Below, one piece after another: positions 1,221 through 49,698 of a DNA stretch of 64,000 nucleotides. Each line of letters opens with the position of its first letter. Positions within the stretch are counted from its first letter, which is position 1. A program made the position numbers and the translations under genes. The DNA lies in the NCBI GenBank assembly GCA_032718475.1, contig JAUCBJ010002846.1, forward strand, positions 1-64,000, written 5' to 3'. The DNA is from Nemertoderma westbladi (lineage: Eukaryota; Animalia; Xenacoelomorpha). Under the pieces are notes generated by a model, which was not told the DNA's origin, did no database searches, and worked only from the letters and a program-made list of their open reading frames with translations.

Positions 1221-1537
1221 CACGCAATATTACTGGATATAGGCCGGACGTTCCCAGGTCATCCCTTCTTCAAAACTGAGTACGGTGACGGACAACTGGC
1301 GCTCTACAACGTACTCAAGGCATATTCTCTGATCGATACAGAAGTTGGTTATTGCCAAGGTTTGGGGTTCGTCGCAGGATTTTTATTGCTACACTTGAGC
1401 GAAGAAGAAACTTTAGATACTTTGCGGTTTCTCATGTTTCATCTAGGCCTGCGACGTCTCTACCAACCAAATATGATGAACCTACAGATGCAGATGTACC
1501 GATTGAGTCGACTTATAGTCGACTTATTGAATCCTCT
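1221..1537 (+). CDS. TBC1D1: TBC1D1/TBC1D4-like Rab-GAP, TBC-domain exon ([17 protein letters not shown]...GYCQG...LNP)
   Basis: Acceptor ttttcctatgtcag|, donor CT|gtaagt (phase 2). Contains the TBC catalytic IxxDxxRT arginine finger and YxQ glutamine finger; closely resembles vertebrate TBC1D1/4 (HAILIDLGRTFP...EVGYCQG, from memory). Confidence 0.93.
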
Positions 1538-2292
1538 GTAAGTTGCCCTATTTATCGACTTACTGAATCCTCTGTAAGTTGCCATATTTATCGACTATAG
1601 TCGACTTACTGAATCCTCTGTAAGTTGCCATATTTATCGACTATAGTCGACTTACTGAATCCTCTGTAAGTTGCCATATTTATCAACTATAGTCGACTTA
1701 CTGAATCCTCTGTAAGTTGCCATATTTATCGACTATAGTCGACTTACTGAATCCTCTGTAAGTTGCCCTATTTATCGACTTACTGAATCCTCTGTAAGTT
1801 GCCATATTTATCGACTATAGTCGACTTACTGAATCCTCTGTAAGTTGCCATATTTATCGACTATAGTCGACTTACTGAATCCTCTGTAAGTTGCCCTATT
1901 TATCGACTTACTGAATCCTCTGTAAGTTGCCATATTTATCGACTATAGTCGACTTACTGAATCCTCTGTAAGTTGCCATATTTATCGACTATAGTCGACT
2001 TACTGAATCCTCTGTAAGTTGCCCTATTTATCGACTTACTGAATCCTCTGTAAGTTGCCATATTTATCGACTATAGTCGACTTACTGAATCCTCTGTAAG
2101 TTGCCATATTTATCGACTATAGTCGACTTACTGAATCCTCTGTAAGTTGCCCTATTTATCGACTATAGTCGACTTACTGAATCCCCTGTAAGTTGCCCTA
2201 TTTATCGACTTACTGAATCCTCTGTAAGTTGCCCTATTTATCGACTTATAGTCGACTTACTGAATCCTCTGTAAGTTGCCCTATTTATCGAC
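1509..2292 (+). repeat. 36/46-bp tandem array made of the exon end plus 5' splice donor (GACTTACTGAATCCTCT|GTAAGTTGCC...)
   Basis: 18 GTAAGT copies counted at 1538, 1574, 1620 ... 2224, 2271, each preceded by the exon-terminal sequence. Confidence 0.95.
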
Positions 2293-2327
2293 GTAGACGA
2301 CACTTTTGTAACTGATTGATATTTTAG

Positions 2328-2475
2328 ACATCAGCATTTGGACGGGCACGACGTTGCACCTAGTCTCTACGCTACATCCTGGTTCCTAACCATCTTCTCT
2401 AGTACATTCCCTATGGGTTTCGTGGCTCGAGTTCTAGACCTCATCTTCATACAGGGGCCTCATGTGATATTCAAG
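2328..2475 (+). CDS. TBC1D1: TBC1D1/4-like exon (L)HQHLDGHDVAPSLYATSWFLTIFSSTFPMGFVARVLDLIFIQGPHVIFK
   Basis: attttag| acceptor, AAG|gtaggg donor; phase 2 matches the previous exon; resembles TBC1D1 [27 protein letters not shown]. Confidence 0.93.
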
Positions 2476-2480
2476 GTAGG

Positions 2481-2650
2481 GTAGTGCAAACATGCTAGTG
2501 TAGTGTATAGTTAACCTACTACAGTGTAGTGTAAACATACTACAGTGTAGTGCAAACATACTACAGTGTAGTGCAAACATACTACAGTGTGGTGCAAACA
2601 TATTAGTGTAGTGTAAAGTAAACATACAGTGTAGTGCAAACATACTACAG
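2481..2650. repeat. Degenerate ~21-bp tandem repeat (TAGTGCAAACATACTACAGTG) beginning just after the donor
   Basis: Visible tandem units; explains the spurious MFALHCS-repeat ORF. Confidence 0.85.
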
Positions 2651-2674
2651 TTACAAAAAGTAATTGGTATATTT

Positions 2675-5600
2675 CGATTTAGCTTGCTTTGCTATCATTT
2701 TGTTATTGATTTAGGTTGCTACCACTTTGTTATTGATTTAGGTTACTATCACTTTGTTATTGATTTGGGTTGCTACCACTTTGTTATTGATTTAGGTTGC
2801 TATCACTTTGTTATTGATTTAGGTTGCTATCACTTTGTTATTGATTTAGGTTGCTATCACTTTGTTATTGATTTAAGTTGCTATCACTTTGTTATTGATT
2901 TAGGTTACTATCACTTTGTTATTGATTTAGGTTGCTACCACTTTGTTATTGATTTAGGTTGCTATCACTTTGTTATTGATTTAGGTTGCTATCACTTTGT
3001 TATTGATTTAGGTTGCTATAACTTTGTTATTGATTTAGGTTGCTATCACTTTGTTATTGATTTAGGTTGCTATCACTTTGTTATTGATTTAGGTTGCTAT
3101 CATTTTGTTATTGATTTAGGTTGCTATCACCTTGTTATTGATTTGGGTTGCTATCTCTTTGTTATTGATTTAGGTTGCTATCACTTTGTTATTGATTTAG
3201 GTTGCTATCACTTTGTTATTGATTTAGGTTGCTATCACTTTGTTATTGATTTAGGTTACTATCACTTTGTTATTGATTTGGGTTGCTATCACTTTGTTAT
3301 TGATTTAGGTTGCTACCACTTTGTTATTGATTTAGGTTGCTATCACTTTGTTATTGATTTGGGTTGCTAGCACTTTGTTATTGATTTGGGTTGCTATCAC
3401 TTTGTTATTGATTTAGGTTGCTATCACTTTGTTATTGATTTAGGTTGCTATCACTTCGTTATTGATTTAGGTTGCTATCACTTTGTTATTGATTTAGGTT
3501 GCTATCACTTTGTTATTGATTTAGGTTGCTATCCTATTGTTATTGATTTAGGTTGCTATCATTTTGTTATTGATTTAGGTTGCTATCACTTTGTTATTGA
3601 TTTAGGTTGCTATCACTTTGTTATTGATTTAGGTTGCTATCACTTTGTTATTGATTTAGGTTACTATCACTTTTTTATTGATTTAGGTTGCTATCACTTT
3701 GTTATTGATTTAAGTTGCTATCACTTTGTTATTGATTTAGGTTACTATCACTTTGTTATTGATTTGGGTTGCTATCACTTTGTTATTGATTTAGGTTGCT
3801 ATCACTTTGTTATTGATTTAGGTTGCTATCACTTTGTTATTGATTTGGGTTGCTATCACTTTGTTATTGATTTAGGTTGCTATCACTTTGTTATTGATTT
3901 AGGTTGCTATCACTTTGTTATTGATTTAGGTTACTATCACTTTGTTATTGATTTGGGTTGCTATCACTTTGTTATTGATTTAGGTTGCTATCACTTTGTT
4001 ATTGATTTAGGTTGCTATCACTTTGTTATTGATTTGGGTTGCTAGCACTTTGTTATTGATTTAGGTTGCTATCACTTTGTTATTGATTTAGGTTGCTATC
4101 ACTTTGTTATTGATTTAGGTTGCTATCACTTTGTTATTGATTTAGGTTACTATCACTTTTTTATTGATTTAGGTTGCTATCACTTTGTTATTGATTTAAG
4201 TTGCTATCACTTTGTTATTGATTTAGGTTACTATCACTTTGTTATTGATTTGGGTTGCTATCACTTTGTTATTGATTTAGGTTGCTATCACTTTGTTATT
4301 GATTTAGGTTGCTATCACTTTGTTATTGATTTAGGTTACTATCACTTTTTTATTGATTTAGGTTGCTATCACTTTGTTATTGATTTAGGTTACTATCACT
4401 TTGTTATTGATTTGGGTTGCTATCACTTTGTTATTGATTTAGGTTGCTATCACTTTGTTATTGATTTAGGTTGCTATCACTTTGTTATTGATTTGGGTTG
4501 CTAGCACTTTGTTATTGATTTAGGTTGCTATCACTTTGTTATTGATTTAGGTTGCTATCACTTTGTTATTGATTTAGGTTGCTATCACTTTGTTATTGAT
4601 TTAGGTTACTATCACTTTTTTATTGATTTAGGTTGCTATCACTTTGTTATTGATTTAAGTTGCTATCACTTTGTTATTGATTTAGGTTACTATCACTTTG
4701 TTATTGATTTGGGTTGCTATCACTTTGTTATTGATTTAGGTTGCTATCACTTTGTTATTGATTTAGGTTGCTATCACTTTGTTATTGATTTAGGTTGCTA
4801 TCACTTTGTTATTGATTTAGGTTGCTATCACTTTGTTATTGATTTAGGTTGCTATCACTTTGTTATTGATTTAGGTTGCTATCATTTTGTTATTGATTTA
4901 GGTTGCTATCACCTTGTTATTGATTTGGGTTGCTATCACTTTGTTATTGATTTAGGTTGCTATCACTTTGTTATTGATTTAGGTTGCTATCACTTTGTTA
5001 TTGATTTAGGTTGCTATAATTTTCTTATTGATTTAGGTTGCTATCACTTTGTTATTGATTTAGGTTGCTATCACTTTGTTATTGATTTAGGTTGCTATCA
5101 CTTTGTTATTGATTTGGGTTGCTAGCACTTTGTTATTGATTTGGGTTGCTATCACTCTGTTATTGATTTAGGTTGCTATCACTTTGTTATTGATTTAGGT
5201 TGCTATCACTTTGTTATTGATTTGGGTTGCTATCACTTTGTTATTGATTTAGGTTGCTATCACTTTGTTATTGATTTAGGTTGCTATCACTTTGTTATTG
5301 ATTTAGGTTACTATCACTTTGTTATTGATTTGGGTTGCTATCACTTTGTTATTGATTTAGGTTGCTATCACTTTGTTATTGATTTAGGTTGCTATCATTT
5401 TGTTATTGATTTAGGTTGCTATCACCTTGTTATTGATTTAGGTTGCTATCACTTTGTTATTGATTTAAGTTGCTATCACTTTGTTATTGATTTAGGTTAC
5501 TATCACTTTGTTATTGATTTGGGTTGCTATCACTTTGTTATTGATTTAGGTTGCTATCACTTTGTTATTGATTTAGGTTGCTATCACTTTGTTATTGATT

Positions 5601-8600
5601 TAAGTTGCTATCACTTTGTTATTGATTTAGGTTACTATCACTTTTTTATTGATTTAGGTTGCTATCACTTTGTTATTGATTTAAGTTGCTATCACTTTGT
5701 TATTGATTTAGGTTACTATCACTTTGTTATTGATTTGGGTTGCTATCACTTTGTTATTGATTTAGGTTGCTATCACTTTGTTATTGATTTAGGTTGCTAT
5801 CACTTTGTTATTGATTTAGGTTACTATCACTTTTTTATTGATTTAGGTTGCTATCACTTTGTTTTTGATTTAGGTTACTATCACTTTGTTATTGATTTGG
5901 GTTGCTATCACTTTGTTATTGATATAAGTTGTTATCACTTTGTTATTGATTTAGGTTGCTATCACTTTGTTATTGATTTAGGTTGCTATCACTTTGTTAT
6001 TGATTTAGGTTGCTATCACTTTGTTATTGATTTAGGTTGCTATCATTTTGTTATTGATTTAGGTTGCTATCACCTTGTTATTGATTTGGGTTGCTATCAC
6101 TTTGTTATTGATTTAGGTTGCTATCACTTTGTTATTGATTTAGGTTGCTATCACTTTGTTATTGATTTAGGTTGCTATAATTTTCTTATTGATTTAGGTT
6201 GCTATCACTTTGTTATTGATTTAGGTTGCTATCACTTTGTTATTGATTTAGGTTGCTATCACTTTGTTATTGATTTGGGTTGCTAGCACTTTGTTATTGA
6301 TTTGGGTTGCTATCACTCTGTTATTGATTTAGGTTGCTATCACTTTGTTATTGATTTAGGTTGCTATCACTTTGTTATTGATTTGGGTTGCTATCACTTT
6401 GTTATTGATTTAGGTTGCTATCACTTTGTTATTGATTTGGGTTGCTATCACTTTGTTATTGATTTAGGTTGCTATAATTTTCTTATTGATTTAGGTTGCT
6501 ATCACTTTGTTATTGATTTAGGTTGCTATCACTTTGTTATTGATTTAGGTTGCTATCACTTTGTTATTGATTTGGGTTGCTAGCACTTTGTTATTGATTT
6601 GGGTTGCTATCACTCTGTTATTGATTTAGGTTGCTATCACTTTGTTATTGATTTAGGTTGCTATCACTTTGTTATTGATTTGGGTTGCTATCACTTTGTT
6701 ATTGATTTAGGTTGCTATCACTTTGTTATTGATTTAGGTTGCTATCACTTTGTTATTGATTTAGGTTACTATCACTTTGTTATTGATTTGGGTTGCTATC
6801 ACTTTGTTATTGATTTAGGTTGCTATCACTTTGTTATTGATTTAGGTTGCTATCATTTTGTTATTGATTTAGGTTGCTATCACCTTGTTATTGATTTAGG
6901 TTGCTATCACTTTGTTATTGATTTAAGTTGCTATCACTTTGTTATTGATTTAGGTTACTATCACTTTGTTATTGATTTGGGTTGCTATCACTTTGTTATT
7001 GATTTAGGTTGCTATCACTTTGTTATTGATTTAGGTTGCTATCACTTTGTTATTGATTTAAGTTGCTATCACTTTGTTATTGATTTAGGTTACTATCACT
7101 TTTTTATTGATTTAGGTTGCTATCACTTTGTTATTGATTTAAGTTGCTATCACTTTGTTATTGATTTAGGTTACTATCACTTTGTTATTGATTTGGGTTG
7201 CTATCACCTTGTTATTGATTTAGGTTGCTATCACTTTGTTATTGATTTAAGTTGCTATCACTTTGTTATTGATTTAGGTTACTATCACTTTGTTATTGAT
7301 TTGGGTTGCTATCACTTTGTTATTGATTTAGGTTGCTATCACTTTGTTATTGATTTAGGTTGCTATCACTTTGTTATTGATTTAGGTTACTATCACTTTG
7401 TTATTGATTTAAGTTGCTATCACTTTGTTATTGATTTAGGTTACTATCACTTTTTTATTGATTTAGGTTGCTATCACTTTGTTATTGATTTAAGTTGCTA
7501 TCACTTTGTTATTGATTTAGGTTACTATCACTTTGTTATTGATTTGGGTTGCTATCACTTTGTTATTGATTTAGGTTGCTATCACTTTGTTATTGATTTA
7601 GGTTGCTATCACTTTGTTATTGATTTAGGTTGCTATCACTTTGTTATTGATTTAAGTTGCTATCACTTTGTTATTGATTTAGGTTACTATCACTTTTTTA
7701 TTGATTTAGGTTGCTATCACTTTGTTATTGATTTAAGTTGCTATCACTTTGTTATTGATTTAGGTTACTATCACTTTGTTATTGATTTGGGTTGCTATCA
7801 CTTTGTTATTGATTTAGGTTGCTATCACTTTGTTATTGATTTAGGTTGCTATCACTTTGTTATTGATTTAGGTTACTATCACTTTTTTATTGATTTAGGT
7901 TGCTATCACTTTGTTTTTGATTTAGGTTACTATCACTTTGTTATTGATTTGGGTTGCTATCACTTTGTTATTGATATAAGTTGTTATCACTTTGTTATTG
8001 ATTTAGGTTGCTATCACTTTGTTATTGATTTAGGTTGCTATCACTTTGTTATTGATTTAGGTTGCTATCACTTTGTTATTGATTTAGGTTGCTATCATTT
8101 TGTTATTGATTTAGGTTGCTATCACCTTGTTATTGATTTGGGTTGCTATCACTTTGTTATTGATTTAGGTTGCTATCACTTTGTTATTGATTTAGGTTGC
8201 TATCACTTTGTTATTGATTTAGGTTGCTATAATTTTCTTATTGATTTAGGTTGCTATCACTTTGTTATTGATTTAGGTTGCTATCACTTTGTTATTGATT
8301 TAGGTTGCTATCACTTTGTTATTGATTTGGGTTGCTAGCACTTTGTTATTGATTTGGGTTGCTATCACTCTGTTATTGATTTAGGTTGCTATCACTTTGT
8401 TATTGATTTAGGTTGCTATCACTTTGTTATTGATTTGGGTTGCTATCACTTTGTTATTGATTTAGGTTGCTATCACTTTGTTATTGATTTGGGTTGCTAT
8501 CACTTTGTTATTGATTTAGGTTGCTATAATTTTCTTATTGATTTAGGTTGCTATCACTTTGTTATTGATTTAGGTTGCTATCACTTTGTTATTGATTTAG

Positions 8601-11600
8601 GTTGCTATCACTTTGTTATTGATTTGGGTTGCTAGCACTTTGTTATTGATTTGGGTTGCTATCACTCTGTTATTGATTTAGGTTGCTATCACTTTGTTAT
8701 TGATTTAGGTTGCTATCACTTTGTTATTGATTTGGGTTGCTATCACTTTGTTATTGATTTAGGTTGCTATCACTTTGTTATTGATTTAGGTTGCTATCAC
8801 TTTGTTATTGATTTAGGTTACTATCACTTTGTTATTGATTTGGGTTGCTATCACTTTGTTATTGATTTAGGTTGCTATCACTTTGTTATTGATTTAGGTT
8901 GCTATCATTTTGTTATTGATTTAGGTTGCTATCACCTTGTTATTGATTTAGGTTGCTATCACTTTGTTATTGATTTAAGTTGCTATCACTTTGTTATTGA
9001 TTTAGGTTACTATCACTTTGTTATTGATTTGGGTTGCTATCACTTTGTTATTGATTTAGGTTGCTATCACTTTGTTATTGATTTAGGTTGCTATCACTTT
9101 GTTATTGATTTAAGTTGCTATCACTTTGTTATTGATTTAGGTTACTATCACTTTTTTATTGATTTAGGTTGCTATCACTTTGTTATTGATTTAAGTTGCT
9201 ATCACTTTGTTATTGATTTAGGTTGCTATCACTTTGTTATTGATTTAGGTTGCTATCACTTTGTTATTGATTTGGGTTGCTAGCACTTTGTTATTGATTT
9301 GGGTTGCTATCACTCTGTTATTGATTTAGGTTGCTATCACTTTGTTATTGATTTAGGTTGCTATCACTTTGTTATTGATTTGGGTTGCTATCACTTTGTT
9401 ATTGATTTAGGTTGCTATCACTTTGTTATTGATTTAGGTTGCTATCACTTTGTTATTGATTTAGGTTACTATCACTTTGTTATTGATTTGGGTTGCTATC
9501 ACTTTGTTATTGATTTAGGTTGCTATCACTTTGTTATTGATTTAGGTTGCTATCATTTTGTTATTGATTTAGGTTGCTATCACCTTGTTATTGATTTAGG
9601 TTGCTATCACTTTGTTATTGATTTAAGTTGCTATCACTTTGTTATTGATTTAGGTTACTATCACTTTGTTATTGATTTGGGTTGCTATCACTTTGTTATT
9701 GATTTAGGTTGCTATCACTTTGTTATTGATTTAGGTTGCTATCACTTTGTTATTGATTTAAGTTGCTATCACTTTGTTATTGATTTAGGTTACTATCACT
9801 TTTTTATTGATTTAGGTTGCTATCACTTTGTTATTGATTTAAGTTGCTATCACTTTGTTATTGATTTAGGTTACTATCACTTTGTTATTGATTTGGGTTG
9901 CTATCACTTTGTTATTGATTTAGGTTGCTATCACTTTGTTATTGATTTAGGTTGCTATCACTTTGTTATTGATTTAGGTTACTATCACTTTTTTATTGAT
10001 TTAGGTTGCTATCACTTTGTTTTTGATTTAGGTTACTATCACTTTGTTATTGATTTGGGTTGCTATCACTTTGTTATTGATATAAGTTGTTATCACTTTG
10101 TTATTGATTTAGGTTGCTATCACTTTGTTATTGATTTAGGTTGCTATCACTTTGTTATTGATTTAGGTTGCTATCACTTTGTTATTGATTTAGGTTGCTA
10201 TCATTTTGTTATTGATTTAGGTTGCTATCACCTTGTTATTGATTTGGGTTGCTATCACTTTGTTATTGATTTAGGTTGCTATCACTTTGTTATTGATTTA
10301 GGTTGCTATCACTTTGTTATTGATTTAGGTTGCTATAATTTTCTTATTGATTTAGGTTGCTATCACTTTGTTATTGATTTAGGTTGCTATCACTTTGTTA
10401 TTGATTTAGGTTGCTATCACTTTGTTATTGATTTGGGTTGCTAGCACTTTGTTATTGATTTGGGTTGCTATCACTCTGTTATTGATTTAGGTTGCTATCA
10501 CTTTGTTATTGATTTAGGTTGCTATCACTTTGTTATTGATTTGGGTTGCTATCACTTTGTTATTGATTTAGGTTGCTATCACTTTGTTATTGATTTGGGT
10601 TGCTATCACTTTGTTATTGATTTAGGTTGCTATAATTTTCTTATTGATTTAGGTTGCTATCACTTTGTTATTGATTTAGGTTGCTATCACTTTGTTATTG
10701 ATTTAGGTTGCTATCACTTTGTTATTGATTTGGGTTGCTAGCACTTTGTTATTGATTTGGGTTGCTATCACTCTGTTATTGATTTAGGTTGCTATCACTT
10801 TGTTATTGATTTAGGTTGCTATCACTTTGTTATTGATTTGGGTTGCTATCACTTTGTTATTGATTTAGGTTGCTATCACTTTGTTATTGATTTAGGTTGC
10901 TATCACTTTGTTATTGATTTAGGTTACTATCACTTTGTTATTGATTTGGGTTGCTATCACTTTGTTATTGATTTAGGTTGCTATCACTTTGTTATTGATT
11001 TAGGTTGCTATCATTTTGTTATTGATTTAGGTTGCTATCACCTTGTTATTGATTTAGGTTGCTATCACTTTGTTATTGATTTAAGTTGCTATCACTTTGT
11101 TATTGATTTAGGTTACTATCACTTTGTTATTGATTTGGGTTGCTATCACTTTGTTATTGATTTAGGTTGCTATCACTTTGTTATTGATTTAGGTTGCTAT
11201 CACTTTGTTATTGATTTAAGTTGCTATCACTTTGTTATTGATTTAGGTTACTATCACTTTTTTATTGATTTAGGTTGCTATCACTTTGTTATTGATTTAA
11301 GTTGCTATCACTTTGTTATTGATTTAGGTTACTATCACTTTGTTATTGATTTGGGTTGCTATCACTTTGTTATTGATTTAGGTTGCTATCACTTTGTTAT
11401 TGATTTAGGTTGCTATCACTTTGTTATTGATTTAGGTTACTATCACTTTTTTATTGATTTAGGTTGCTATCACTTTGTTTTTGATTTAGGTTACTATCAC
11501 TTTGTTATTGATTTGGGTTGCTATCACTTTGTTATTGATATAAGTTGTTATCACTTTGTTATTGATTTAGGTTGCTATCACTTTGTTATTGATTTAGGTT

Positions 11601-14450
11601 GCTATCACTTTGTTATTGATTTAGGTTGCTATCACTTTGTTATTGATTTAGGTTGCTATCATTTTGTTATTGATTTAGGTTGCTATCACCTTGTTATTGA
11701 TTTGGGTTGCTATCACTTTGTTATTGATTTAGGTTGCTATCACTTTGTTATTGATTTAGGTTGCTATCACTTTGTTATTGATTTAGGTTGCTATAATTTT
11801 CTTATTGATTTAGGTTGCTATCACTTTGTTATTGATTTAGGTTGCTATCACTTTGTTATTGATTTAGGTTGCTATCACTTTGTTATTGATTTGGGTTGCT
11901 AGCACTTTGTTATTGATTTGGGTTGCTATCACTCTGTTATTGATTTAGGTTGCTATCACTTTGTTATTGATTTAGGTTGCTATCACTTTGTTATTGATTT
12001 GGGTTGCTATCACTTTGTTATTGATTTAGGTTGCTATCACTTTGTTATTGATTTAGGTTGCTATCACTTTGTTATTGATTTAGGTTACTATCACTTTGTT
12101 ATTGATTTGGGTTGCTATCACTTTGTTATTGATTTAGGTTGCTATCACTTTGTTATTGATTTAGGTTGCTATCATTTTGTTATTGATTTAGGTTGCTATC
12201 ACCTTGTTATTGATTTAGGTTGCTATCACTTTGTTATTGATTTAAGTTGCTATCACTTTGTTATTGATTTAGGTTACTATCACTTTGTTATTGATTTGGG
12301 TTGCTATCACTTTGTTATTGATTTAGGTTGCTATCACTTTGTTATTGATTTAGGTTGCTATCACTTTGTTATTGATTTAAGTTGCTATCACTTTGTTATT
12401 GATTTAGGTTACTATCACTTTGTTATTGATTTGGGTTGCTATCACTTTGTTATTGATTTAGGTTGCTATCACTTTGTTATTGATTTAGGTTGCTATCACT
12501 TTGTTATTGATTTAGGTTGCTATCATTTTGTTATTGATTTAGGTTGCTATCACCTTGTTATTGATTTAGGTTACTATCACTTTGTTATTGATTTAGGTTA
12601 CTATCACTTTGTTATTGATTTAGGTTACTATCACTTTGTTATTGATTTAGGTTACTATCACTTTGTTATTGATTTGGGTTGCTATCACTTTGTTATTGAT
12701 TTAGGTTGCTATCACTTTGTTATTGATTTAGGTTGCTATCACTTTGTTATTGATTTAGGTTGCTATCACTTTGTTATTGATTTGGGTTGCTATCACTTTG
12801 TTATTGATTTAGGTTGCTATCACTTTGTTATTGATTTAGGTTGCTATCACTTTGTTATTGATTTAGGTTGCTATAACTTTGTTATTAATTTAGGTTGCTA
12901 TCACTTTGTTATTGATTTAGGTTGCTATCACTTTGTTATTGATTTAGGTTGCTATCACTTTGTTATTGATTTAGGTTGCTATCACTTTGTTATTGATTTA
13001 GGTTGCTATCACTTTGTTATTGATTTAGGTTACTATCACTTTGTTATTGATTTGGGTTGCTATCACTTTGTTATTGATTTAGGTTGCTATCCTATTGTTA
13101 TTGATTTAGGTTGCTATCACTTTGTTATTGATTTGGGTTGCTAGCACTTTGTTATTGATTTGGGTTGCTATCACTCTGTTATTGATTTAGGTTGCTATCA
13201 CTTTGTTATTGATTTAGGTTGCTATCACTTTGTTATTGATTTGGGTTGCTATCACTTTGTTATTGATTTAGGTTGCTATCACTTTGTTATTGATTTAGGT
13301 TGCTATCACTTTGTTATTGATTTAGGTTACTATCACTTTGTTATTGATTTGGGTTGCTATCACTTTGTTATTGATTTAGGTTGCTATCACTTTGTTATTG
13401 ATTTAGGTTGCTATCATTTTGTTATTGATTTAGGTTGCTATCACCTTGTTATTGATTTAGGTTGCTATCACTTTGTTATTGATTTAAGTTGCTATCACTT
13501 TGTTATTGATTTAGGTTACTATCACTTTGTTATTGATTTGGGTTGCTATCACTTTGTTATTGATTTAGGTTGCTATCACTTTGTTATTGATTTAGGTTGC
13601 TATCACTTTGTTATTGATTTAAGTTGCTATCACTTTGTTATTGATTTAGGTTACTATCACTTTGTTATTGATTTGGGTTGCTATCACTTTGTTATTGATT
13701 TAGGTTGCTATCACTTTGTTATTGATTTAGGTTGCTATCACTTTGTTATTGATTTAGGTTGCTATCATTTTGTTATTGATTTAGGTTGCTATCACCTTGT
13801 TATTGATTTAGGTTACTATCACTTTGTTATTGATTTAGGTTACTATCACTTTGTTATTGATTTAGGTTACTATCACTTTGTTATTGATTTAGGTTACTAT
13901 CACTTTGTTATTGATTTGGGTTGCTATCACTTTGTTATTGATTTAGGTTGCTATCACTTTGTTATTGATTTAGGTTGCTATCACTTTGTTATTGATTTAG
14001 GTTGCTATCACTTTGTTATTGATTTGGGTTGCTATCACTTTGTTATTGATTTAGGTTGCTATCACTTTGTTATTGATTTAGGTTGCTATCACTTTGTTAT
14101 TGATTTAGGTTGCTATAACTTTGTTATTAATTTAGGTTGCTATCACTTTGTTATTGATTTAGGTTGCTACCACTTTGTTATTGATTTAGGTTGCTACCAC
14201 TTTGTTATTGATTTAGGTTGCTATCACTTTGTTATTGATTTAGGTTGCTATCACTTTGTTATTGATTTGGGTTGCTATCACTTTGTTATTGATTTAGGTT
14301 GCTATCACTTTGTTATTGATTTAGGTTGCTATCACTTTGTTATTGATTTAGGTTGCTATCACTTTGTTATTGATTTAGGTTGCTATCACTTTGTTATTGA
14401 TTTAGGTTGCTATCACTTTGTTATTGATTTAGGTTGCTATCACTTTGTTA
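2675..14450 (+). repeat. 27-bp satellite (TTGTTATTGATTTAG|GTTGCTATCACT), ~435 copies, derived from the acceptor and start of the 14433 exon
   Basis: Strict 27-bp period; the last unit continues without a break into coding sequence GTT GCT ATC ACT TTG TTA ACC. Confidence 0.97.
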
Positions 14451-14564
14451 ACCTTTTACCAAGGGAATCTCATGTTTTGTGAAAACTTTGAGACATTAGT
14501 TACAGTTCTCAAGGAGAAAATTAATAAATTACCCGACTTACCCGTTGAAACGTTCCTTTCTCAG
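14433..14564 (+). CDS. TBC1D1: TBC1D1/4-like exon VAITLLTFYQGNLMFCENFETLVTVLKEKINKLPDLPVETFLSQ
   Basis: 132 bp, phase 0/0, gatttag| acceptor and CAG|gttagt donor; aligns with TBC1D1 VALSLL...ENLETIVDFIK...TINQ. Confidence 0.9.
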
Positions 14565-14859
14565 GTTAGTAAATTTTGCATTGAAATACTTTAATTTGAA
14601 TGAAACACTGGAGTTGAACAATAATGAACATGTGATTAATGACATCCTATTTCTTTATTATATTTACGGGACGCCAAAAATTAATTTCGGAACATCCCCA
14701 AATGAGTCTTCTATATCAATGATCCCATTTCCATAGGTAGAGAAATTGGGCAGGGTTTAAGGGGTGGGGGGGGGGGGGTTGTGGTGGTGTACTTGCTTGG
14801 AAGTCAACGTTTTGATTTGCTTACTGCATGCACCAAAGAGCTATTATGTAGAAAAAAAA

Positions 14860-15720
14860 ATGTATGATACATTTTGGGTGGACTATATTGAATTGTAATA
14901 TTAAAAAAAAATTATTAATTTTTGACGCCCCTTAGCGGCCTGACCAAAAATTTTAATTTTTGACTTAAAAATGCAACTTCTTTGTTTTATGCTTTATTTT
15001 CAGAAGTTGTAACCTTTTTTTGGAATCAGCATGGCCGATTGCATGAAAAAATTCGAGCAGAATTTTTGTTTCTTACTTTTAAAGGAAAATACCGCTATTT
15101 TTCAAAATATTTTTAAAATTTTTAAAAAAGCACTGTTTTTTTTTCGTAAAAAATGTTATAACCGATGAACAATTACAAAACTAAAAAACTGCTAGAATTA
15201 TTTTTTTGCGCACACTAGTAGCTTTCATTTGATACCAAAAACTTGCCAATTGGTTGAAAAATGGCGGAGGAGATGTGTTTTAAAAAAAGTGAAAATGAAG
15301 TGAAAAAAAATGAAAAAAATCCATTCCGAGATAATTGCCTTTAAAATTTGAACCTTCCCGCGCAAAAAATTGTCTGTAATATATGAGAATGTCTGTCAAT
15401 ATATATAGCAACACGAAAACACAAAATCATGCTAAGATTTTTGCTGTGGGGGTTTACCTGGTCGCTGGTTTAATTTCTGAGGTCAGAATTCACTTTTAAT
15501 GAAATCTGGTTAGTCTGTTTGTCTGTCTGTCGGTCTTTCTGACTATCTGTCTGTCAAATATAAGAAAAGGGCACATCATCTAACTAAAACTTTAGTTATA
15601 GGGGTTTTCCTGGTCGCAGAATTAATTTCGATTCATTTCTGATTTAACATTTGATGATTTCCAAATTGTCTGTTTGGCTGTCAGACTGTCGGTTATATTT
15701 TGACTGACAGGCATACAGAC
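14860..15720. mobile_element. Diverged dispersed repeat (probable non-autonomous DNA element), homologous in inverted orientation to the flanks of the 50-bp satellite
   Basis: Reverse complement of ~15320-15480 aligns with 20864-20915 and 43140-43195; boundaries approximate. Confidence 0.55.
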
Positions 15721-15786
15721 TCTCTCGCTCAAGTATGTTCAGCATACTTTCATTATATCTATCTATATATAGATATATTTATATAT

Positions 15787-16150
15787 CAGACACTATATAA
15801 CATTGGAGGTGTCTCATTGGACCCCCAAGATTGATGTCAATAAAGCCGCTTCAGCTTCGCAGGGCATTGTTTTCTCCATCAGGAACAGCCTGTGCACAAT
15901 CTTGTGTGTATAATCTTGTGTGCACAATCTTGTGTGCACAATCTTGTGTGTATAATCTTGTGTGCACAATCTTGTGTGTATAATCTTGTGTGCACAATCT
16001 TGTGTGTATAATCTTGTGTGCACAATCTTGTGTGTATAATCTTGTGTGCACAATCTTGTGTGTATAATCTTGTGTGCACAATCTTGTGCTTTCCAGCCTC
16101 ATGGAAAAAATAAGCAAGGTGGATAGAACATGACGCGTATACTTGTCTTG
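15787..16150 (+). mobile_element. Degenerate RTE-like LINE 3' fragment (FAGHCF..QEQPVHNLV..QPHG) interrupted by a 14-bp repeat
   Basis: Nucleotide and peptide similarity to the minus-strand fragment at 17854-18143. Confidence 0.6.
15891..16089. repeat. 14/28-bp tandem repeat (TGTGCACAATCTTG / TGTGTATAATCTTG)
   Basis: Visible alternating 14-bp units. Confidence 0.92.
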
Positions 16151-16513
16151 AAGATGCGAAATTCATGTACATTATCTATCATTCTTTGCAGTCGTTTCAG
16201 AAATGTCAATGGCTGCCCACAAAGGGTTGCCCTCAGCTCTACGATAGAAGTGGCCGACAAACGAATCAGTGGTGCCTGCAGGGCGGTGAATGGTTTTGAC
16301 AATAATATATTAGTTACTACCAGTTTGAGAGTACAAATTATTGTACTTGTATCCTTACTCTACTTACACCCTAATGGAACCAAAGCACAGCTCTGGACTA
16401 ATACATCCTTATCAACAAAAAACATCACAACATCATCCAAGGATTAAGCTAGATTAACCATTTTTGATATTGTTTTCTATTTGATCTAAAATTGTTGTTT
16501 TATAAAATTATAG

Positions 16514-16681
16514 GTATTTGACTTAGATATAACGGAAAAACTCCACGAGTATGAGGTAGAATATCACGTCTTGCAAGAAGTAAATGCAGCTAATGAAATG
16601 GATAATAATGAATCCATGAGACAAGAAAGGATAGACGATGTACTTAGACTGCACAATGAGGAGCTTATTGAACAGTTGCAG
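16514..16681 (+). CDS. TBC1D1: TBC1D1/4-like exon VFDLDITEKLHEYEVEYHVLQE...LIEQLQ (post-TBC, coiled-coil start)
   Basis: 168 bp, phase 0/0, tatag| acceptor, CAG|gttagt donor; contains the YEVEYHVLQE motif characteristic of TBC1D1/4. Confidence 0.93.
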
Positions 16682-17016: not shown

Positions 17017-19607
17017 TAGTATTGTTATACCCTATCTCGCTATCTCTGCGACAGTTGGACCTACTTCGCACCTTAGGTGTTAAGTAGGTCATTAATTAAT
17101 TAATTAATTAATTAATTGGCCGATTAAACAATTAATTAATTGTTTAATCGATCGATTTGTATCAAATAATGTTGCCAAAGGCAATTTAATTTGACACAAA
17201 TCAATCAGATAGGGACGCGCGATGAATAGATAGTACTACTGTAGGTACAGTAGATAAAATATACAATACAATAGGTACCATACAATACAATATACAGTAC
17301 ATTTGTATTATTTTTTTCATACAGTAGGTAACGATAGAGGCGGGGCCCAAAATATAAATTACCCTCACAGGAAAATACGTGGGCCAGTTTGGCCGTGACT
17401 CAGTCCCCCAATCTGAGGCTGTTGGGCTCTTATTAGACGTAGCAAGATTAATCCCATTGAATCCTGTGTTGAGTTATATTGTATGTCAACGTGTACGTGG
17501 GGCTTGCACGAATTGAAAATTATTTAAACCTCCAGCTTTGCTATTATGTAAGATTGGAAACCACAGGTTTCGGTCTTACGCGCCAGCATTAACCCTCAAT
17601 CGCGCACAGGCCAGCTGCAACCATTAATTACCCCACATACGAACATTGTCAAATACACCGGCAGTAGAAAACACTGTGAATAGCACCACCAAAACTACAG
17701 TAATTTGAGTTCCTTTCTTATGCTTGGTGGGAAAATTTCAAGAAACATCTGGTTCACAATAGATTGCCTTATAGGTTTACGTCTTACAAGCCAGCATTAA
17801 CCCCAAATAGCGCATTACTATTAGGATAGGCATGCTGCATTGCAGCTGCATTTTTAAGAATGCTGTGCCGGCTTATCGACAAAATTGCACCACCACAACT
17901 CCCTATCACCCATGACATTTGGTAGATCATCCGCATCTTCTAGGCCAGTGTCCTTTAAGATGCGTCTCAAGAAAGTCATGGGCTGTCCATCATGCTTATT
18001 CACTCCATGAGGCTGCCAAAGTACAAGATTATGCACTGGCTGGTCCTCACGGCGAAAGCAATGTCCTGCAAAGCGGAGGCGATTTTGTTCTAGTGTCAAG
18101 CTTGGGGGAACCAATGAGACACCTCCAATGTTATAGTGTCTGGTTGGAGATGTGTGCATTGTACGTGACACAATAATCTTGAGTAGTATCTAGAAGTATC
18201 TTGACACAACAGCTTTGAATAGTGTGCGGCAAACTCATCGTCAGTAGGAGTACCGGATTCTTGGACAGATAAGACTTCTCCATTCCAGTCTATGGCTGCC
18301 CAAAGGCGTTTTGGGTCACTATTGGTTGCGAGACGCGCCCATCGACTCTTCGTTGATCCGAATCCTGCCGTCACTGCCCCCTGGCTCCTGTGTTACATAA
18401 TTCGAGGTATGTTTTGAGTTAGATATGTATTTGTAAATATTTAGTGAGAAATAACCGCACATTGCATCAATATCAGACTGGGCCGTTTGTATAATGGGTT
18501 GGTAAATGGTAGAGGGGCGAGCCATGCAGTGAGCATAGCTCGGAGGAACAGCTAACTCTAACACCGACTTAAAGTTTCAAGTGAAGTGCAGTTGGGTTTA
18601 ATTCCCTTAACACAATTCACAGTCGGGGGTCCAGATATTGCGTCAGAGGCATTCAAAAGCTCATCGCCCAAACATTTCGATCGGTTGAGTAGTTGTGATG
18701 ACGTTATATTTGTTGCAGCATCAGTTACGCTGATCAGAGCTGACCACTGATCAGGTCAGTGGGGAGTCGTAAATATCTGTCCACATTCATACATTTAATA
18801 GCTGAGGGGACTTTAGATACCTCGTTAACTAGGGATACTAAATAATCTTGAGAAGAAACCCATTTATCTTTTATCCTAAACCTGAGACCACACTGATAAA
18901 GGGATGAATGAGTTGATAAACCGTTTAAAATTATACACCCAGTGTCAAATGTAAAATGCCTTTGAAAATTTTCCCATGAGAGTTTATTGTCTGGTCGGGC
19001 CATGGTTGGTATTTCCAACCATTGTCCTGTGGTTTCCAATCTTACATAATAGCAAAGCTGGAGGCTTAAATAATTTTCAATTCGTGCAAGCCCCACCTAC
19101 ACGTTGACATACAGTATAATTCAACATAGGATTCAATGGGATTAATCTTGCTACGTCTAATAAGAGCCCAACAGGCTCAGATTGGGTGACTGAGTCAGGG
19201 TCAAACTGGCCCACGTATTTTCCGGTGAGGGTAAATTATGTTTTAGGCCCTGCCACGTCTTTTTCTTTCGTTCTATCATTACCTACTGTATGACAAAAAT
19301 AATACAAATGTACTGTATATTGTACTGTATGGTACCTATTGTATTGTATATTTTATCTACTGTACCTACAGTAGTACTATCTATTCATCGCGCGTCCCTA
19401 TCTGATTGATTTGTGTCAAATTAAATTGCCTTTGGCAACATTTTTTATTTGATCAATTAGTTGATCGATCGATTAAACAATTAATTAATTGTTTAATCGG
19501 CCAATTAATTAATTAATTAATTAATTAATTAATGACCTACTTAACACCTAAGGTGCGAAGTAGGTCCAACTGTCGCAGAGATAGCGAGATAGGGTATAAC
19601 AATACTA
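17017..19607. mobile_element. Foldback-type non-autonomous DNA transposon, ~550-580-bp TIRs (17017-17567 / 19026-19607), TAG...CTA termini, LINE fragments inside
   Basis: Long near-identical inverted repeats read directly; CTGGTAAG near both ends (imperfect TSD, 3 extra bases on the left). Confidence 0.85.
17854..19010 (-). pseudogene. Degenerate LINE ORF2 fragments: APE endonuclease C-terminus (DYLVS...LPTD), linker (KRLWAAIDWNG) and RTE-type C-terminus (RLRFAGHCFR...DRELW)
   Basis: Peptide motifs in short minus-strand ORFs 18734-19096, 18096-18374 and 17854-18171; RT core absent. Confidence 0.6.
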
Positions 19608-20245: not shown

Positions 20246-20417
20246 GTGGCGAAAAATCAAAAGAAGTGTCTAGAAGGAACAGTACTGCAACTCCAAGACA
20301 CTGTTTCAAAACTGAAACAAGATATGCGAGAGATGGAGAATGAACGCATTCAGTTAATGGAAGGTGTAACCAGATTGCAAAACGAAATACCTTTTGATCG
20401 CCTTCAGCCATTATTGG
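20246..20417 (+). CDS. TBC1D1: TBC1D1/4-like coiled-coil exon VAKNQKKCLEGTVLQLQDTVSKLKQDMREMENERIQLMEGVTRLQNEIPFDRLQPLL
   Basis: gttgtctag| acceptor, G|gttagt donor (phase 1), 172 bp open; aligns with TBC1D1 VANGRIQSLEATI...SKLKQ...ELER. Not listed in the ORF track. Confidence 0.85.
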
Positions 20418-26400: not shown

Positions 26401-29006
26401 ACTATTAACCAACCAGACCCCATCGGTGCTGTCAGACACTATTAACCAACCAGACCCCATCGGTGGTGTGTTTCCTTCCTGTCAGACACTATTAACCAAC
26501 CAGACCCCATCGGTGGTGTGTTTCCTTCCTGTCAGACACTATTAACCAACCAGACCCCATCGGTGGTGTGTTTCCTTCCTGTCAGACACTATTAACCAAC
26601 CAGACCCCATCGGTGCTGTGTTTCCTTCCTGTCAGACACTATTAACCAACTAGACCTCATCGGTGGTGTGTTTCCTTCCTGTCAGACACTATTAACCAAC
26701 TAGACCCCATCGGTGGTGTGTTTCCTTCCTGTCAGACACTATTAACCAACCAGACACTATTAACCAACCAGACCCCATCGGTGGTGTGTTTCCTTCCTGT
26801 CAGACACTATTAACCAACCAGACCCCATCGGTGGTGTGTTTCCTTCCTGTCAGACACTATTAACCAACCAGACCCCATCGGTGCTGTGTTTCCTTCCTGT
26901 CAGACACTATTAACCAACCAGACCCCATCGGTGGTGTGTTTCCTTCCTGTCAGACACTATTAACCAACCAGACCCCATCGGTGGTGTGTTTCCTTCCTGT
27001 CAGACTCTATTAACCAACCAGACCCCATCGGTGGTGTGTTTCCTTCCTGTCAGACACTATTAACCAACCAGACCCCATCGGTGGTGTGTTTCCTTCCTGT
27101 CAGACACTATTAACTAACCAGACACTATTAACCAACCAGACACTATTAACCAACCAGACCCCATCGGTGGTGTGTTTCCTTCCTGTCAGACACTATTAAC
27201 CAACCAGACCCCATCGGTGGTGTGTTTCCTTCCTGTCAGACACTATTAACCAACCAGACCCCATCGGTGCTGTGTTTCCTTCCTGTCAGACACTATTAAC
27301 CAACCAGACCCCATCGGTGCTGTGTTTCCTTCCTGTCAGACACTATTAACCAACCAGACCCCATCGGTGGTGTGTTTCCTTCCTGTCAGACACTATTAAC
27401 CAACCAGACCCCATCGGTGGTGTGTTTCCTTCCTGTCAGACACTATTAACCAACCAGACCCCATCGGTGGTGTGTTTCCTTCCTGTCAGACACTATTAAC
27501 CAACCAGACCCCATCGGTGCTGTCAGACACTATTAACCAACCAGACCCCATCGGTGGTGTGTTTCCTTCCTGTCAGACACTATTAACCAACCAGACCCCA
27601 TCGGTGGTGTGTTTCCTTCCTGTCAGACACTATTAACCAACCAGACCCCATCGGTGGTGTGTTTCCTTCCTGTCAGACACTATTAACCAACCAGACACTA
27701 TTAACCAACCAGACACTATTAACCAACCAGACCCCATCGGTGGTGTGTTTCCTTCCTGTCAGACACTATTAACTAACCAGACCCCATCGGTGGTGTGTTT
27801 CCTTCCTGTCAGACACTATTAACCAACCAGACCCCATCGGTGCTGTCAGACACTATTAACCAACCAGACCCCATCGGTGGTGTGTTTCCTTCCTGTCAGA
27901 CACTATTAACCAACCAGACCCCATCGGTGGTGTGTTTCCTTCCTGTCAGACACTATTAACCAACCAGACCTCATCGGTGGTGTGTTTCCTTCCTGTCAGA
28001 CACTATTAACCAACTAGACCCCATCGGTGGTGTGTTTCCTTCCTGTCAGACACTATTAACCAACCAGACACTATTAACCAACCAGACCCCATCGGTGGTG
28101 TGTTTCCTTCCTGTCAGACACTATTAACCAACCAGACCCCATCGGTGGTGTGTTTCCTTCCTGTCAGACACTATTAACCAACCAGACCCCATCGGTGGTG
28201 TGTTTCCTTCCTGTCAGACACTATTAACCAACCAGACCCCATCGGTGGTGTGTTTCCTTCCTGTCAGACACTATTAACCAACCAGACCCCATCGGTGCTG
28301 TGTTTCCTTCCTGTCAGACACTATTAACCAACCAGACCCCATCGGTGGTGTGTTTCCTTCCTGTCAGACACTATTAACCAACCAGACCCCATCGGTGGTG
28401 TGTTTCCTTCCTGTCAGACACTATTAACCAACCAGACCCCATCGGTGGTGTGTTTCCTTCCTGTCAGACACTATTAACCAACTAGACCCCATCGGTGGTG
28501 TGTTTCCTTCCTGTCAGACACTATTAACCAACCAGACCCCATCGGTGCTGTGTTTCCTTCCTGTCAGACACTATTAACCAACCAGACCCCATCGGTGGTG
28601 TGTTTCCTTCCTGTCAGACACTATTAACCAACCAGACCCCATCGGTGGTGTGTTTCCTTCCTGTCAGACACTATTAACCAACTAGACCCCATTGGTGGTG
28701 TGTTTCCTTCCTGTCAGACACTATTAACTAACCAGACACTATTAACCAACCAGACCCCATCGGTGGTGTGTTTCCTTCCTGTCAGACACTATTTATTTAT
28801 TTATTTATGCCAGGCAAAGAACACCCATATCACATTGATTTAAACAACAGACATAATGATTAACAAATTATAATAATATAGCTAGGTATGGTGGGGTGGG
28901 GCCCCGAGCAGGGAAGCACAAACTGCAATGAATAAAGAAAATCAATACAAAACAAAACAAAATAAACAAAATAACAAAACAAAACAAAATAAACGATTTG
29001 GACCTC

Positions 29007-31112
29007 CTAATGGCTGTCCAAGGAACACCGACCAATCAGACGGCTTGTCTGGAACGTCACCATGGCCACACTCTGCACAATACTATTCTGAGACGAGTTC
29101 ACGCGATGCAACAGTGATACCCGCGCATTGTGAAGGACATGAATGAGTTTCGGCAGATTTAATGCACCACACATGTATGATACACTAGAGTCATACCGAA
29201 ATCCAAACAATTTTCTAATTATATTGTTGTAGGCCACCCTAAACTTGTTGTACGTTGCAATGGAGTAATTACTTCGAGCCCACAACGAGCTGCAATAAAC
29301 TTGCGTACAAAATGAGCGAAAAAGTTTCACTTTAACGTCCCGAGAACTGTAGCTGAATTTACGAATGAGGAAATTACCCCTACGATATAAACTCGATAGC
29401 TGATTTAGAATGTCATAATTGTCATCGGTGGTAGAGTGAAATATATGACCTAAGTACTTAAATTTTGTAACTGTCTCAATAGCCTTACCATTTATCGATA
29501 TATATTTAACTAAATCGTTGTTACTAGATTTCGGTATGTATCGCATAAACTTAGATTTCTTCATATTAATCACAATAGAGTGCCTGTCGGCATAACTCGT
29601 GAAAGTGTCAATCAACTTATTTAAACCAGCTATCGAGTTTGATGCTAAAGATAAGTCATCAGCATACAAAAGATGATTTGATCTCTTATTATTTAATTTA
29701 CAACCTACGTTTGTATTAGTTAACTCTACACTTAAGTCGTCCATATATATAGCATAGAAGTAGGCCGATAAAATACCCCCTTGTTTCGTGCCGTTAGTGA
29801 CTGCAAACGAGTTAGATATACAACCCCCCCATCGTATACTAAGAACTTGAAACCGGTACCAATATCGAACTATCCTAATGTAAAACAGAGGAATGTTACG
29901 TTTAATTAATTTATCAAATAACTTGTAATGGTTAACCAGATCGAAAGCCTTTGAGGAATCTATGAAACATATGTACACCGCACTGTCATTTTCTAAATAG
30001 TATTGTATGGTTTCTTTTAAAGCGAAAACGCATAATTCAGTACCTAAATTACTTTTAAATCCAAACTGAGAGTCTGTAGTATTCAGTTTAGAACTGAAAC
30101 GTTCAAGCATAACTAGCTCCAAAACTTTGCTACTTATAGTTGCAAGGGCTATGCCTCTATAATTATCAAAATGTGTGATATCATCATTTTTGTCCTTCAC
30201 GATGGGCAAAATATTGCATAGCATGAACTCGTCATTCATATGACCATGAACATTGAAAGTACTGTACAGAGCCGCCAGGCGGCGGAACAGACGCGCGGTG
30301 CCATGGATATAGTGTTCGCTGGACAGACCATCAGGTCCAATTTTTCCGGGAGACAACCTACCTACAGCAACAGCTACCTCTACATCAGAAACCAACATAT
30401 CATTGCTAAATTCAATATTACTGAAAATAGATTCAATGTCGTGCTTGCCGGAGTCATCATTTACTTTATTGTATAAGTTTTTTAATCTTTCCTTAAAGGC
30501 GTCACATATATATTTTTCGCCCACAGCATCGCCAACTTTACTGGACAGCGGTACGTGTGCACTGCAGTGCTTTTTAACATTAGCCCAAAAGTCATTTTGA
30601 TTACTCGAATATAATGACTCCGCAAGTTTATCAGCGCGTATACCATTAGCATTGCGCTTACACTGTTTAAGTGCGCGTTTAAATTCTAACTTGGACTGAT
30701 AATAATCAAAAAGAATAGGACCTGCTCGGGGACACCCGTTAGTACGCCAAATTCTAAAAAATAATCTTGACCTATCATACAATGATTTAACATAATCATT
30801 CCATCCCGGGACAGCATTAAACTTTGAGTTCACTGAACCTTTCTTTTTCGGAATAGTGCGCTCAGAGGCTAGATGCAATGCACCAACAATATCACAGTAT
30901 AAATTGTTTATTGCACTTAAGTGATCAGGATTAGTACATTGAGCATCTGCACAGTTAGATACAGTATCAGGGACTACAATTGTATTTAAGAGACTGTTCA
31001 AGACTGATTGATATTCATTGATATTAGTTGCATTGGCATTATTCCAATCGCATTTGTTACCTGCACACGTTCTATTACTAGTATTACTATGAATATTAGG
31101 TTCAGGGGCCAC
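29007..31112 (-). CDS. LINE ORF2 reverse transcriptase (truncated copy 1)
   Basis: RT motifs NYRGIAL, QFGF, FIDSSKAFD, QGGILS, YADD, FKYLG. Confidence 0.92.
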   Translation of the reverse strand: MAPEPNIHSNTSNRTCAGNKCDWNNANATNINEYQSVLNSLLNTIVVPDTVSNCADAQCTNPDHLSAINNLYCDIVGALHLASERTIPKKKGSVNSKFNAVPGWNDYVKSLYDRSRLFFRIWRTNGCPRAGPILFDYYQSKLEFKRALKQCKRNANGIRADKLAESLYSSNQNDFWANVKKHCSAHVPLSSKVGDAVGEKYICDAFKERLKNLYNKVNDDSGKHDIESIFSNIEFSNDMLVSDVEVAVAVGRLSPGKIGPDGLSSEHYIHGTARLFRRLAALYSTFNVHGHMNDEFMLCNILPIVKDKNDDITHFDNYRGIALATISSKVLELVMLERFSSKLNTTDSQFGFKSNLGTELCVFALKETIQYYLENDSAVYICFIDSSKAFDLVNHYKLFDKLIKRNIPLFYIRIVRYWYRFQVLSIRWGGCISNSFAVTNGTKQGGILSAYFYAIYMDDLSVELTNTNVGCKLNNKRSNHLLYADDLSLASNSIAGLNKLIDTFTSYADRHSIVINMKKSKFMRYIPKSSNNDLVKYISINGKAIETVTKFKYLGHIFHSTTDDNYDILNQLSSLYRRGNFLIRKFSYSSRDVKVKLFRSFCTQVYCSSLWARSNYSIATYNKFRVAYNNIIRKLFGFRYDSSVSYMCGALNLPKLIHVLHNARVSLLHRVNSSQNSIVQSVAMVTFQTSRLIGRCSLDSH

Positions 31113-31113
31113 C

Positions 31114-43838: not shown

Positions 43839-45078
43839 GTAGTGCATCGAATCAATGTGATTATCTCTTGATTTGGACAAGGCTAGGTTGTTCTTTCTAA
43901 TTATCCATGCATAAACCAGTAAACTAGGCTATATTTTACATATTGCAGTGAAATCGGTTCCGATTTTATAATAAGTTGACCCATGGAATACTGGAATACT
44001 TGGAATACTTGAATGGAATGGAATACTTGACCCATGGTATATTTAGTATTCCATGGTTGACCACATCTTACTACACAGTCAGACAGTAGAGTAGGAACAT
44101 AGTTACTTATCAGTAATCAATGTCAGCCTGTATATTAATTAGCCTCTTAGATCGGAGTCGTAATACCAACTCTCGGCGTCTCCTGCCCTGGCCGCACCAG
44201 AGGAGACGATGCACGATTGATCATATAAGTTCAGCTGTTGGCTAACTAATGCACTACTGAGAGTAATATTTACAGCCAATAAAATGCCAAACAGTTTCAA
44301 CATATGACTGGGAAATATAAGAGCATTGAATCTTGCAGTTGCCTTGAGCAAAGTCTTGGGTCGGAAATCCTCAGTGGAAGTTTCTACTTTAGTCAGACCC
44401 ATCGATGATAGAAAACCAGAACAAATAGCTACCAGAGCAAAGGGGAATGCAGTGGCCGATATAGCTGTTACGCCGGGAGCCATTATCCTGTAATGGCGGG
44501 GATGGTGACTGCTGCAGCGGGGGTAGGCGCGTAGCATTGGGGTCGTTATGAACGCATGCCAACCCACCCCGGTCCATATAGCTGGTAGAAGGGTGATAAC
44601 GGTCAGCACTGGAAACAGGAGCGGCCCCTTGGGCTGAATCACCCTGGTCACCGGGAAGAGAGTTAGCGGTCCAGGAGCCATCGCCGCCATCGCCACAACA
44701 GTTTCCGTGTTCTGGAATATAAACCGCTGCTGCGGCTGTAAATTGGTGCGTATGGCGCGGAAACCGTTCTTAGTTTTTCGACTACTGAAGGTTTCGCTGA
44801 AGTGGGCAAAGCTGGCACCCATTACTGTCTTCTAGAGTTCTATTGAATCTACTGATAGTACAAAACAAAGTTCAATTGTCGTTTGGAGTTTATAGCTACA
44901 TTAAGAGTCAGTAGGATACCGGTACAACAACAACTGCGGTACCGGTACCAGTAGTATGGTAAGTGATACAGTTACATACTGAGGGTCAGTTTACTCTGTG
45001 GTGAATTCAAATTTCCCGTGTGACAAGATAATGGTAGACTTTCAGGTTACAGGAGGGACGCTGTGCTGATGGCCCAAT

Positions 45079-49504: not shown

Positions 49505-49698
49505 ATGTAAGTTGTCCTCGAAGGGAGCGCGCCACTTCAGATATCAACTTCGCAATGGATATACCGGGGCTCCATCAGACTTACAGCAGTTCGGTTGAGG
49601 AACTAAGTTCAGCAGAAACTAGTCCAACTATAGAGAATATTACGCGTGCGGTCTTCCGAACTGACATCACTCATCCTAGCAGCCAAAATATGTACTGA
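49505..49698 (+). CDS. TBC1D1: Probable terminal coding exon of the TBC1D1/4-like gene: (D)VSCPRRERATSDINF...SSQNMY*
   Basis: T-rich acceptor ttttattggtttag|AT; phase 1 complements the G left by exon 20246-20417 (GAT); open to TGA. No recognisable homology. Confidence 0.55.

Follow-up and report, generated by a model that had tools for sequence, protein, structure and literature searches.

A 435-copy intron/exon boundary array in a predicted TBC1D1/TBC1D4 gene of Nemertoderma westbladi

Tandem repeats of an intron/exon boundary, termed mirages, have been described in amphioxus in Adh3 and in the globin genes BflGb6 and BflGb9, for which reverse-transcription PCR suggested normal splicing (PMC3087553), and also in PGBD5 and the troponin C gene (PMC3902484). 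In the published passages, mirages apparently leave splicing undisturbed (PMC3087553, PMC3902484). In intron 7 of human F7, a 37-bp variable number tandem repeat (VNTR) provides 5–9 identical functional donors, of which only the first is used, being chosen by 5'-to-3' scanning (PMC1557585). Here we describe a 27-bp array that repeats the 3' splice site of a predicted TBC1D1/TBC1D4 Rab GTPase-activating protein (Rab-GAP) gene of the xenacoelomorph Nemertoderma westbladi, located in positions 1 to 64,000 of contig JAUCBJ010002846.1 (assembly GCA_032718475.1); this stretch of 64,000 nucleotides is referred to as the window. The array is a mirage and thus of a published kind; it is notable for its size, 435 copies over 11.7 kb, compared with 2–9 copies in the published passages. 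No acceptor array of hundreds of copies was found in the literature searched, which leaves most subscription journals outside its coverage.

The first-pass annotation of this DNA had described a ~435-fold, 11.7-kb amplification of a 27-bp unit, and the description holds. Tandem Repeats Finder (TRF) reports 435.6 copies at 2689–14450 with 95% matches and 0% indels, and strict 27-base steps taken backward from 14450 divide 2706–14450 into 435 monomers in register. Each unit joins the nine intron bases TTGATTTAG to the 18 bases with which exon 14433–14564 begins. The monomers have a mean identity of 97.4% to the last copy, with 301 substitutions in total and no indels, and fall into 20 types (four of them singletons) that follow one another in irregular order, the type of the last copy being the commonest (203/435). 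Their order is a mosaic with exactly recurring blocks of 79, 60, 60, 53 and 51 monomers, the longest exact internal repeat being 79 monomers or 2133 bp, a pattern that would be expected of repeated unequal exchange or block duplication. The interior is homogenised and the edge copies are divergent. An array start near 2675, as first proposed, is matched by a degenerate acceptor with its AG at 2681–2682, preceded by unique intron sequence; this AG is likely the original intron end, stranded by the first duplication, which would have left the working exon at the 3' end of the array and the old intron end at its 5' edge.

Four marks of a mirage are thus found at the sequence level: a unit that spans the boundary, intronic copies beside an intact exon, partial retention of the splice signal, and a homogenised interior with divergent edges. 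The extra copies are confined to the intron. The array was also considered as a protein-coding repeat and rejected: the gene's frame meets 351 stops through it, with a longest open run of 26 aa, and all antisense frames are closed. Another sense frame is interrupted by only 13 stops and includes an open run of 584 aa, but no array acceptor joins the upstream exon to that frame.

The array shares with the amphioxus mirages minisatellite-like boundary copies lying in an intron, of which many but not all keep the splice signal, as well as divergent edges; both acceptors and donors are affected in each case. As in BflGb6, the 3' end of the intron is repeated together with the 5' part of the next exon, and the 27-bp unit lies within the 10–72 bp range of Adh3. 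In comparison, copy numbers are 3 and 6 in BflGb6 and 2–7 in PGBD5, and the higher-order block structure is seen only in the present array. For the amphioxus mirages there are tests of normal splicing and of length instability, whereas the Nemertoderma locus is known from its sequence alone. The host also differs, in that searches returned no close relative (best 65–68% identity) and its intron pattern is unlike that of other animal loci.

The host gene is assigned to TBC1D1/TBC1D4 on the basis of a RabGAP-TBC domain followed by a coiled coil, and all named protein hits are animal TBC1D1/TBC1D4; the N-terminal PTB domains of these proteins fall outside the window, and the assignment rests on the RabGAP-TBC and coiled-coil part. 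Joining the six coding exons of Table 1 (1221–1537 to 49505 on) gives an open frame of 376 aa, with 49% identity to oyster TBC1D4 (P0005) over 307 residues and no gap at the FK|VA junction, the point where the protein crosses from the exon ending at 2475 into exon 14433–14564. It follows that the last acceptor is the protein-yielding one. In agreement with the first-pass annotation, the donor lies at 2476 and the target exon (132 nt, phase 0 at both ends) is followed by a donor at 14565; the remainder of the exon is present in the last copy alone, which is also the single copy that matches homologues without a gap in spliced alignment. In the five homology-supported exons the frames are open, the GT-AG ends are canonical and the phases compatible, and this part of the gene is without a pseudogene lesion. 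Protein searches found no close relative (best identities 67% and 68%), and none among seven candidates for the target exon. Three of the five supported donors read GTTAGT.

Homologous loci were obtained from a metagenome scan, in which 80 of 518 were kept, none of them from this organism. Thirty of the kept loci were intron-bearing, defined as having at least two aligned pieces, and in 18 of these the alignment ended or was lost before FK|VA. An intron at FK|VA was present in 0 of the 12 intron-bearing loci that cover the site; two loci within the scan, L036 and L070, may be paralogues. The intron is thus lineage-specific. The earlier description of a conserved exon applies to the protein segment and not to its boundary. 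The 5' part of the intron (2476–2680) is unrelated to the 27-bp unit, indicating that the array enlarged an existing intron, and birth of the intron by duplication of the 27-bp unit is ruled out on the same ground. In the model of Rogers, introns are gained by tandem duplication of AG/GT proto-splice sites; a mirage model is outlined in the legend of Fig. 7 of PMC3087553. The locus shares with intron gain of this type a unit containing AG|GT and a lineage-specific host intron, but differs in the unrelated 5' end, with no sign that the array created the intron. The fetched loci lack introns at 1538 and 2476 wherever they cover these positions, and the intron pattern across 1221–16681 is unlike that of other animal TBC1D1/4 loci, the common introns inside the TBC domain being missing.

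Among the 435 copies the acceptor reads TAG in 319 (318 decoys and the authentic site) and AAG in 32, where the AG is displaced by one base; the AG is lost in 84. Lost and shifted AGs had been pointed out at the outset. The first-pass annotation had further predicted that splicing to any intact upstream copy would add eight residues and then a stop. Translation of the 318 TAG decoys bears this out for 245; in the others the following copy carries TGG, which delays the stop to 17 residues in 62 and to 26 in 11. The 32 AAG copies all shift the frame and stop after six residues, so that each of the 350 upstream copies with an AG leads to a stop after 6–26 residues, within 27 codons. The in-frame stop needs no design, since this intron is in phase 0 and ends in TAG and the unit length is divisible by three. 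Every one of these stops lies 5' of at least three further introns. Transcripts with a stop upstream of further introns are, by the usual rule, substrates of nonsense-mediated decay (NMD), which would likely remove errors made at decoys. Skipping of exon 14433–14564 would keep the frame and cost 44 aa.

At alternative 3' splice sites 3–100 nt apart, AGs that lie near the branch point can be skipped, and the order of preference is CAG > TAG > AAG > GAG (PMC2018619), by which the 32 AAG copies are weak. Those cases concern pairs of unlike sites, whereas hundreds of identical sites every 27 nt are present here. In F7 the minisatellite likewise lies over an exon/intron boundary, but in the present array acceptors are repeated and the last must be chosen, so that first-come scanning would give the wrong answer. 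The locus is therefore an extreme natural test of acceptor choice where the last among many identical sites must be used, the mirror of first-donor choice in F7, and since each decoy yields a distinct read and stop, the choice is readable from junction reads.

For any copy, the best branch-point-like motif (by motif match, with its A at –33) sits in the preceding copy. As the upstream context is identical as well, intron-side signals cannot discriminate between copies. Unique to the last copy are 114 further exon bases and the donor at 14565, which is among the strongest in the gene (9/11 consensus matches, duplex energy –9.8 kcal/mol); each decoy has 18 exon bases only, with no good donor behind it. 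Cross-exon pairing with this donor would favour the nearest acceptor, and exon definition is the most likely selector because the only unique signals of the last copy lie downstream. We hypothesize that a single 27-bp tandem duplication across the intron/exon border was followed by growth through block-wise unequal exchange, that growth into the intron was tolerated since the reading frame would never have been touched, and that NMD would clear mis-spliced transcripts and leave a working gene. Leakage would fall mostly on the five identical copies 27–135 nt upstream, giving exons of 159–267 nt. The array would then be a tolerated mirage of 435 copies in which exon definition picks the last acceptor and NMD removes the errors, a reading to which we assign a probability of roughly 0.65. 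It is likely a by-product of a repeat-prone genome and not a device. The kind of structure is known and recurrent, and the biology is probably that of ordinary repeat turnover. The anatomy first proposed, an amplified acceptor whose last copy restores the protein, therefore stands, while the accompanying suggestion of expression tuned by array length is without supporting evidence. Masking of the decoys by RNA structure was also considered and rejected, on one 153-nt fold of –13.5 kcal/mol that was made without shuffled controls. Reed and Maniatis (1986) reportedly found that an acceptor copy followed by only a short stub of exon is passed over; this result is not counted as evidence here.

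Several points weigh against a tolerated mirage. Across their whole upstream context, the five decoys nearest the exon are the same as the authentic site, and they would make exons of ordinary size; the sequence alone does not explain how the authentic site is told from them. Accurate splicing is an assumption. For duplicated globin donor or acceptor sites, one study found that only the proximal copy was used and another found the reverse, as summarised in PMC1557585, so that accurate choice is not guaranteed. Lastly, the AG pair carries 116 of the 301 substitutions, a count that 2 of 351 pairs of positions reach, or 2 of 45 when only purines are paired, which exceeds strict neutrality in a post hoc comparison.

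These last figures would suit a load on the gene or, as in the tuning first suggested, a form of regulation, in which decoys truly compete, wrong acceptors or skipping remove a considerable fraction of the transcripts in proportion to array length, and copies that lose the AG are favoured. Of all variants, the commonest and the third commonest fall on the AG positions, the nearest decoys equal the authentic site in sequence, and the donor array of the same gene (see below) keeps its GT in 18/18 copies, making the loss acceptor-specific here. On the other hand, AG loss traces to only about two mutational origins, each apparently a single lineage; the distinct substitutions that hit the AG number 2 of 19 against 1.4 expected; the count is less exceptional among purine positions; and one of the two variants still leaves AAG. 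Retention of the AG is 73–85% at both ends of the array and lowest (64%) in the middle, so that neither proximity to the exon nor proximity to the donor goes with greater loss, and an acceptor mirage in another organism keeps CAG in 6/6 copies. Targeted loss near the exon is rejected, as TAG is kept in the last 5/5 decoys and in 17 of the last 20, compared with 318/434 (73%) overall; such retention is what one would expect of decoys that cost little. The AG-destroying variants are a hint of selection at most, and a substantial load from the decoys seems doubtful.

Under recursive splicing, the exon ending at 2475, which finishes in AG, would be joined to an AG|GT decoy, rebuilding a donor that is reused to reach a later copy, so that the normal junction results. 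AG|GT is read in 319 copies and the +1 G is unchanged in 435/435, although the GT at the exon start is simply a Val codon and many other positions of the unit are equally invariant. The rebuilt site has 7/11 consensus matches (8/11 in the 60 copies with +4 G>A), within the 6–9 of the five homology-supported donors, but its +5 is not G and its predicted U1 pairing (–4.1 kcal/mol) is weaker than that of the real donors (–5.4 to –9.8 kcal/mol) and is matched by 21% of 231 background GT sites. A literature search on recursive splicing with tandem repeats returned nothing relevant. Such ratcheting is possible, yet very unlikely. If it did occur, the array would be self-erasing, with any of the 318 decoys relaying onward, which would explain growth to 435 copies, and selection inside a satellite would account for the spread both of +4 G>A, which improves the donor match, and of units without AG. 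That the mirage is real but its copy number inflated or scrambled by assembly is also quite unlikely. Blocks of 1.4–2.1 kb recur exactly in the array, another part of the window contains a 2331-bp segment in two copies with 99.6% identity, and the array length is that of the assembled contig; against this, there is neither an N (as in the whole window) nor an indel over 11.7 kb, the 20 monomer types stand in irregular order with four singletons, and the array greatly exceeds the longest exact repeat (2133 bp), so that phasing by long reads would be possible. Finally, a silent duplicate whose array grew free of splicing constraint would accord with the very large arrays and LINE-like (long interspersed nuclear element) insertions in the introns of the gene. 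The open, phase-compatible frames and canonical GT-AG ends of the five homology-supported exons, together with the fact that all expansions spare coding sequence, make this highly improbable.

The acceptor mirage has company in the same gene. An array of 36/46/47-bp units repeats the end of the exon at 1221–1537 with its 5' splice site and is the direct counterpart of the F7 minisatellite. It contains 18 donor copies, namely the authentic GT at 1538 and 17 decoys; GTAAGT is kept in all of them, and read-through past the first donor meets an immediate stop. In another organism, locus L042 (1–461; also L040, 1–226) carries a mirage of six 77-bp acceptor copies at a different TBC1D1 exon, with CAG|GT in every copy. 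Given the donor mirage and the independent case in L042, mirage formation is recurrent. The repeats in L066 and L035 are intronic and without exon sequence. Arrays make up 68% of the window, and for three of the ten arrays in the gene region the end is at most 40 nt from the edge of a supported exon (p 0.005 in a post hoc binomial test that includes the 27-bp array). A splice-site repeat can thus grow from a minisatellite to a 12-kb satellite within a gene whose frame is intact, which is relevant to gene annotation in repeat-rich invertebrate genomes.

Table 1. Positions in the window of the coding exons and boundary-associated repeats of the predicted TBC1D1/TBC1D4 gene
Feature	Position	Strand	Evidence
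Coding exon, first part of RabGAP-TBC	1221..1537	+	Pfam PF00566, E 9e-26; 67% identity to oyster TBC1D4 (P0005)
Donor mirage, exon end and 5' splice site in 36/46/47-bp units	1516..2292	+	TRF; first donor gives ungapped homologue match
Upstream coding exon ending ...VIFK, donor GT at 2476	2328..2475	+	Pfam PF00566, E 4.5e-12
21-bp intronic minisatellite without exon sequence	2513..2651	+	Separate from 27-bp array, just past donor 2476
Degenerate 5'-most copy of 27-bp array	2673..2705	+	Sequence; AG at 2681-2682, first exon-like base altered, 5-base duplication
Acceptor mirage, 435 x 27 bp	2706..14450	+	TRF, monomer cutting, spliced alignment
Authentic intron end, AG at 14431-14432	14424..14432	+	Sequence; branch point by motif match only
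Target exon, 132 nt, 44 aa, phase 0/0	14433..14564	+	tblastn 38% to P0007, E 0.002; ungapped in spliced alignment
Next coding exon	16514..16681	+	tblastn 41% to P0005
Coiled-coil coding exon	20246..20417	+	tblastn 37% to P0005
Probable last coding exon, phase 1, 64 codons to stop	49505..49698	+	Frame fit only, no homology of its own

Further repeats were observed in the window. A 29-bp array at 1–1102 contains a TACTAAC branch-point-like motif about 37 times, each with a pyrimidine run, in a unit without AG; it ends just before an AG near 1107 that opens a possible 43-nt exon (to 1151, followed by GT) without clear homology support. A 50-bp satellite at 20914–43146 comprises about 240 copies of a pyrimidine tract and CAG in three blocks, and its final unit continues into what may be a 29-nt micro-exon (43118–43146), after which GTAAT follows. 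The micro-exon extends the frame of exon 20246–20417, but its phase is incompatible with the probable last exon, and downstream of it lies DNA similar to a dispersed repeat at 15322–15367. The 50-bp satellite is possibly a third mirage in this gene.

Inside the 50-bp satellite lie two 2.3-kb minus-strand fragments (28794–31121 and 38147–40475) that are 99.6% identical, with open reading frames of 708 and 756 aa. Both frames contain a YADD motif, which we take to be reverse-transcriptase-like, and the pair may represent a LINE-like piece duplicated along with the satellite. The segment 17017–19607 has inverted ends of ~580 bp (17017–17567 and 19026–19607) with 92% identity and is likely an insertion resembling a DNA transposon or a miniature inverted-repeat transposable element. 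A 49-bp satellite of 257 copies begins at 51419, outside the predicted coding region, and runs for at least 12.6 kb to position 64000 and past the end of the window. Within an intron, the minus strand at 44142–44831 carries an open frame of 230 aa.

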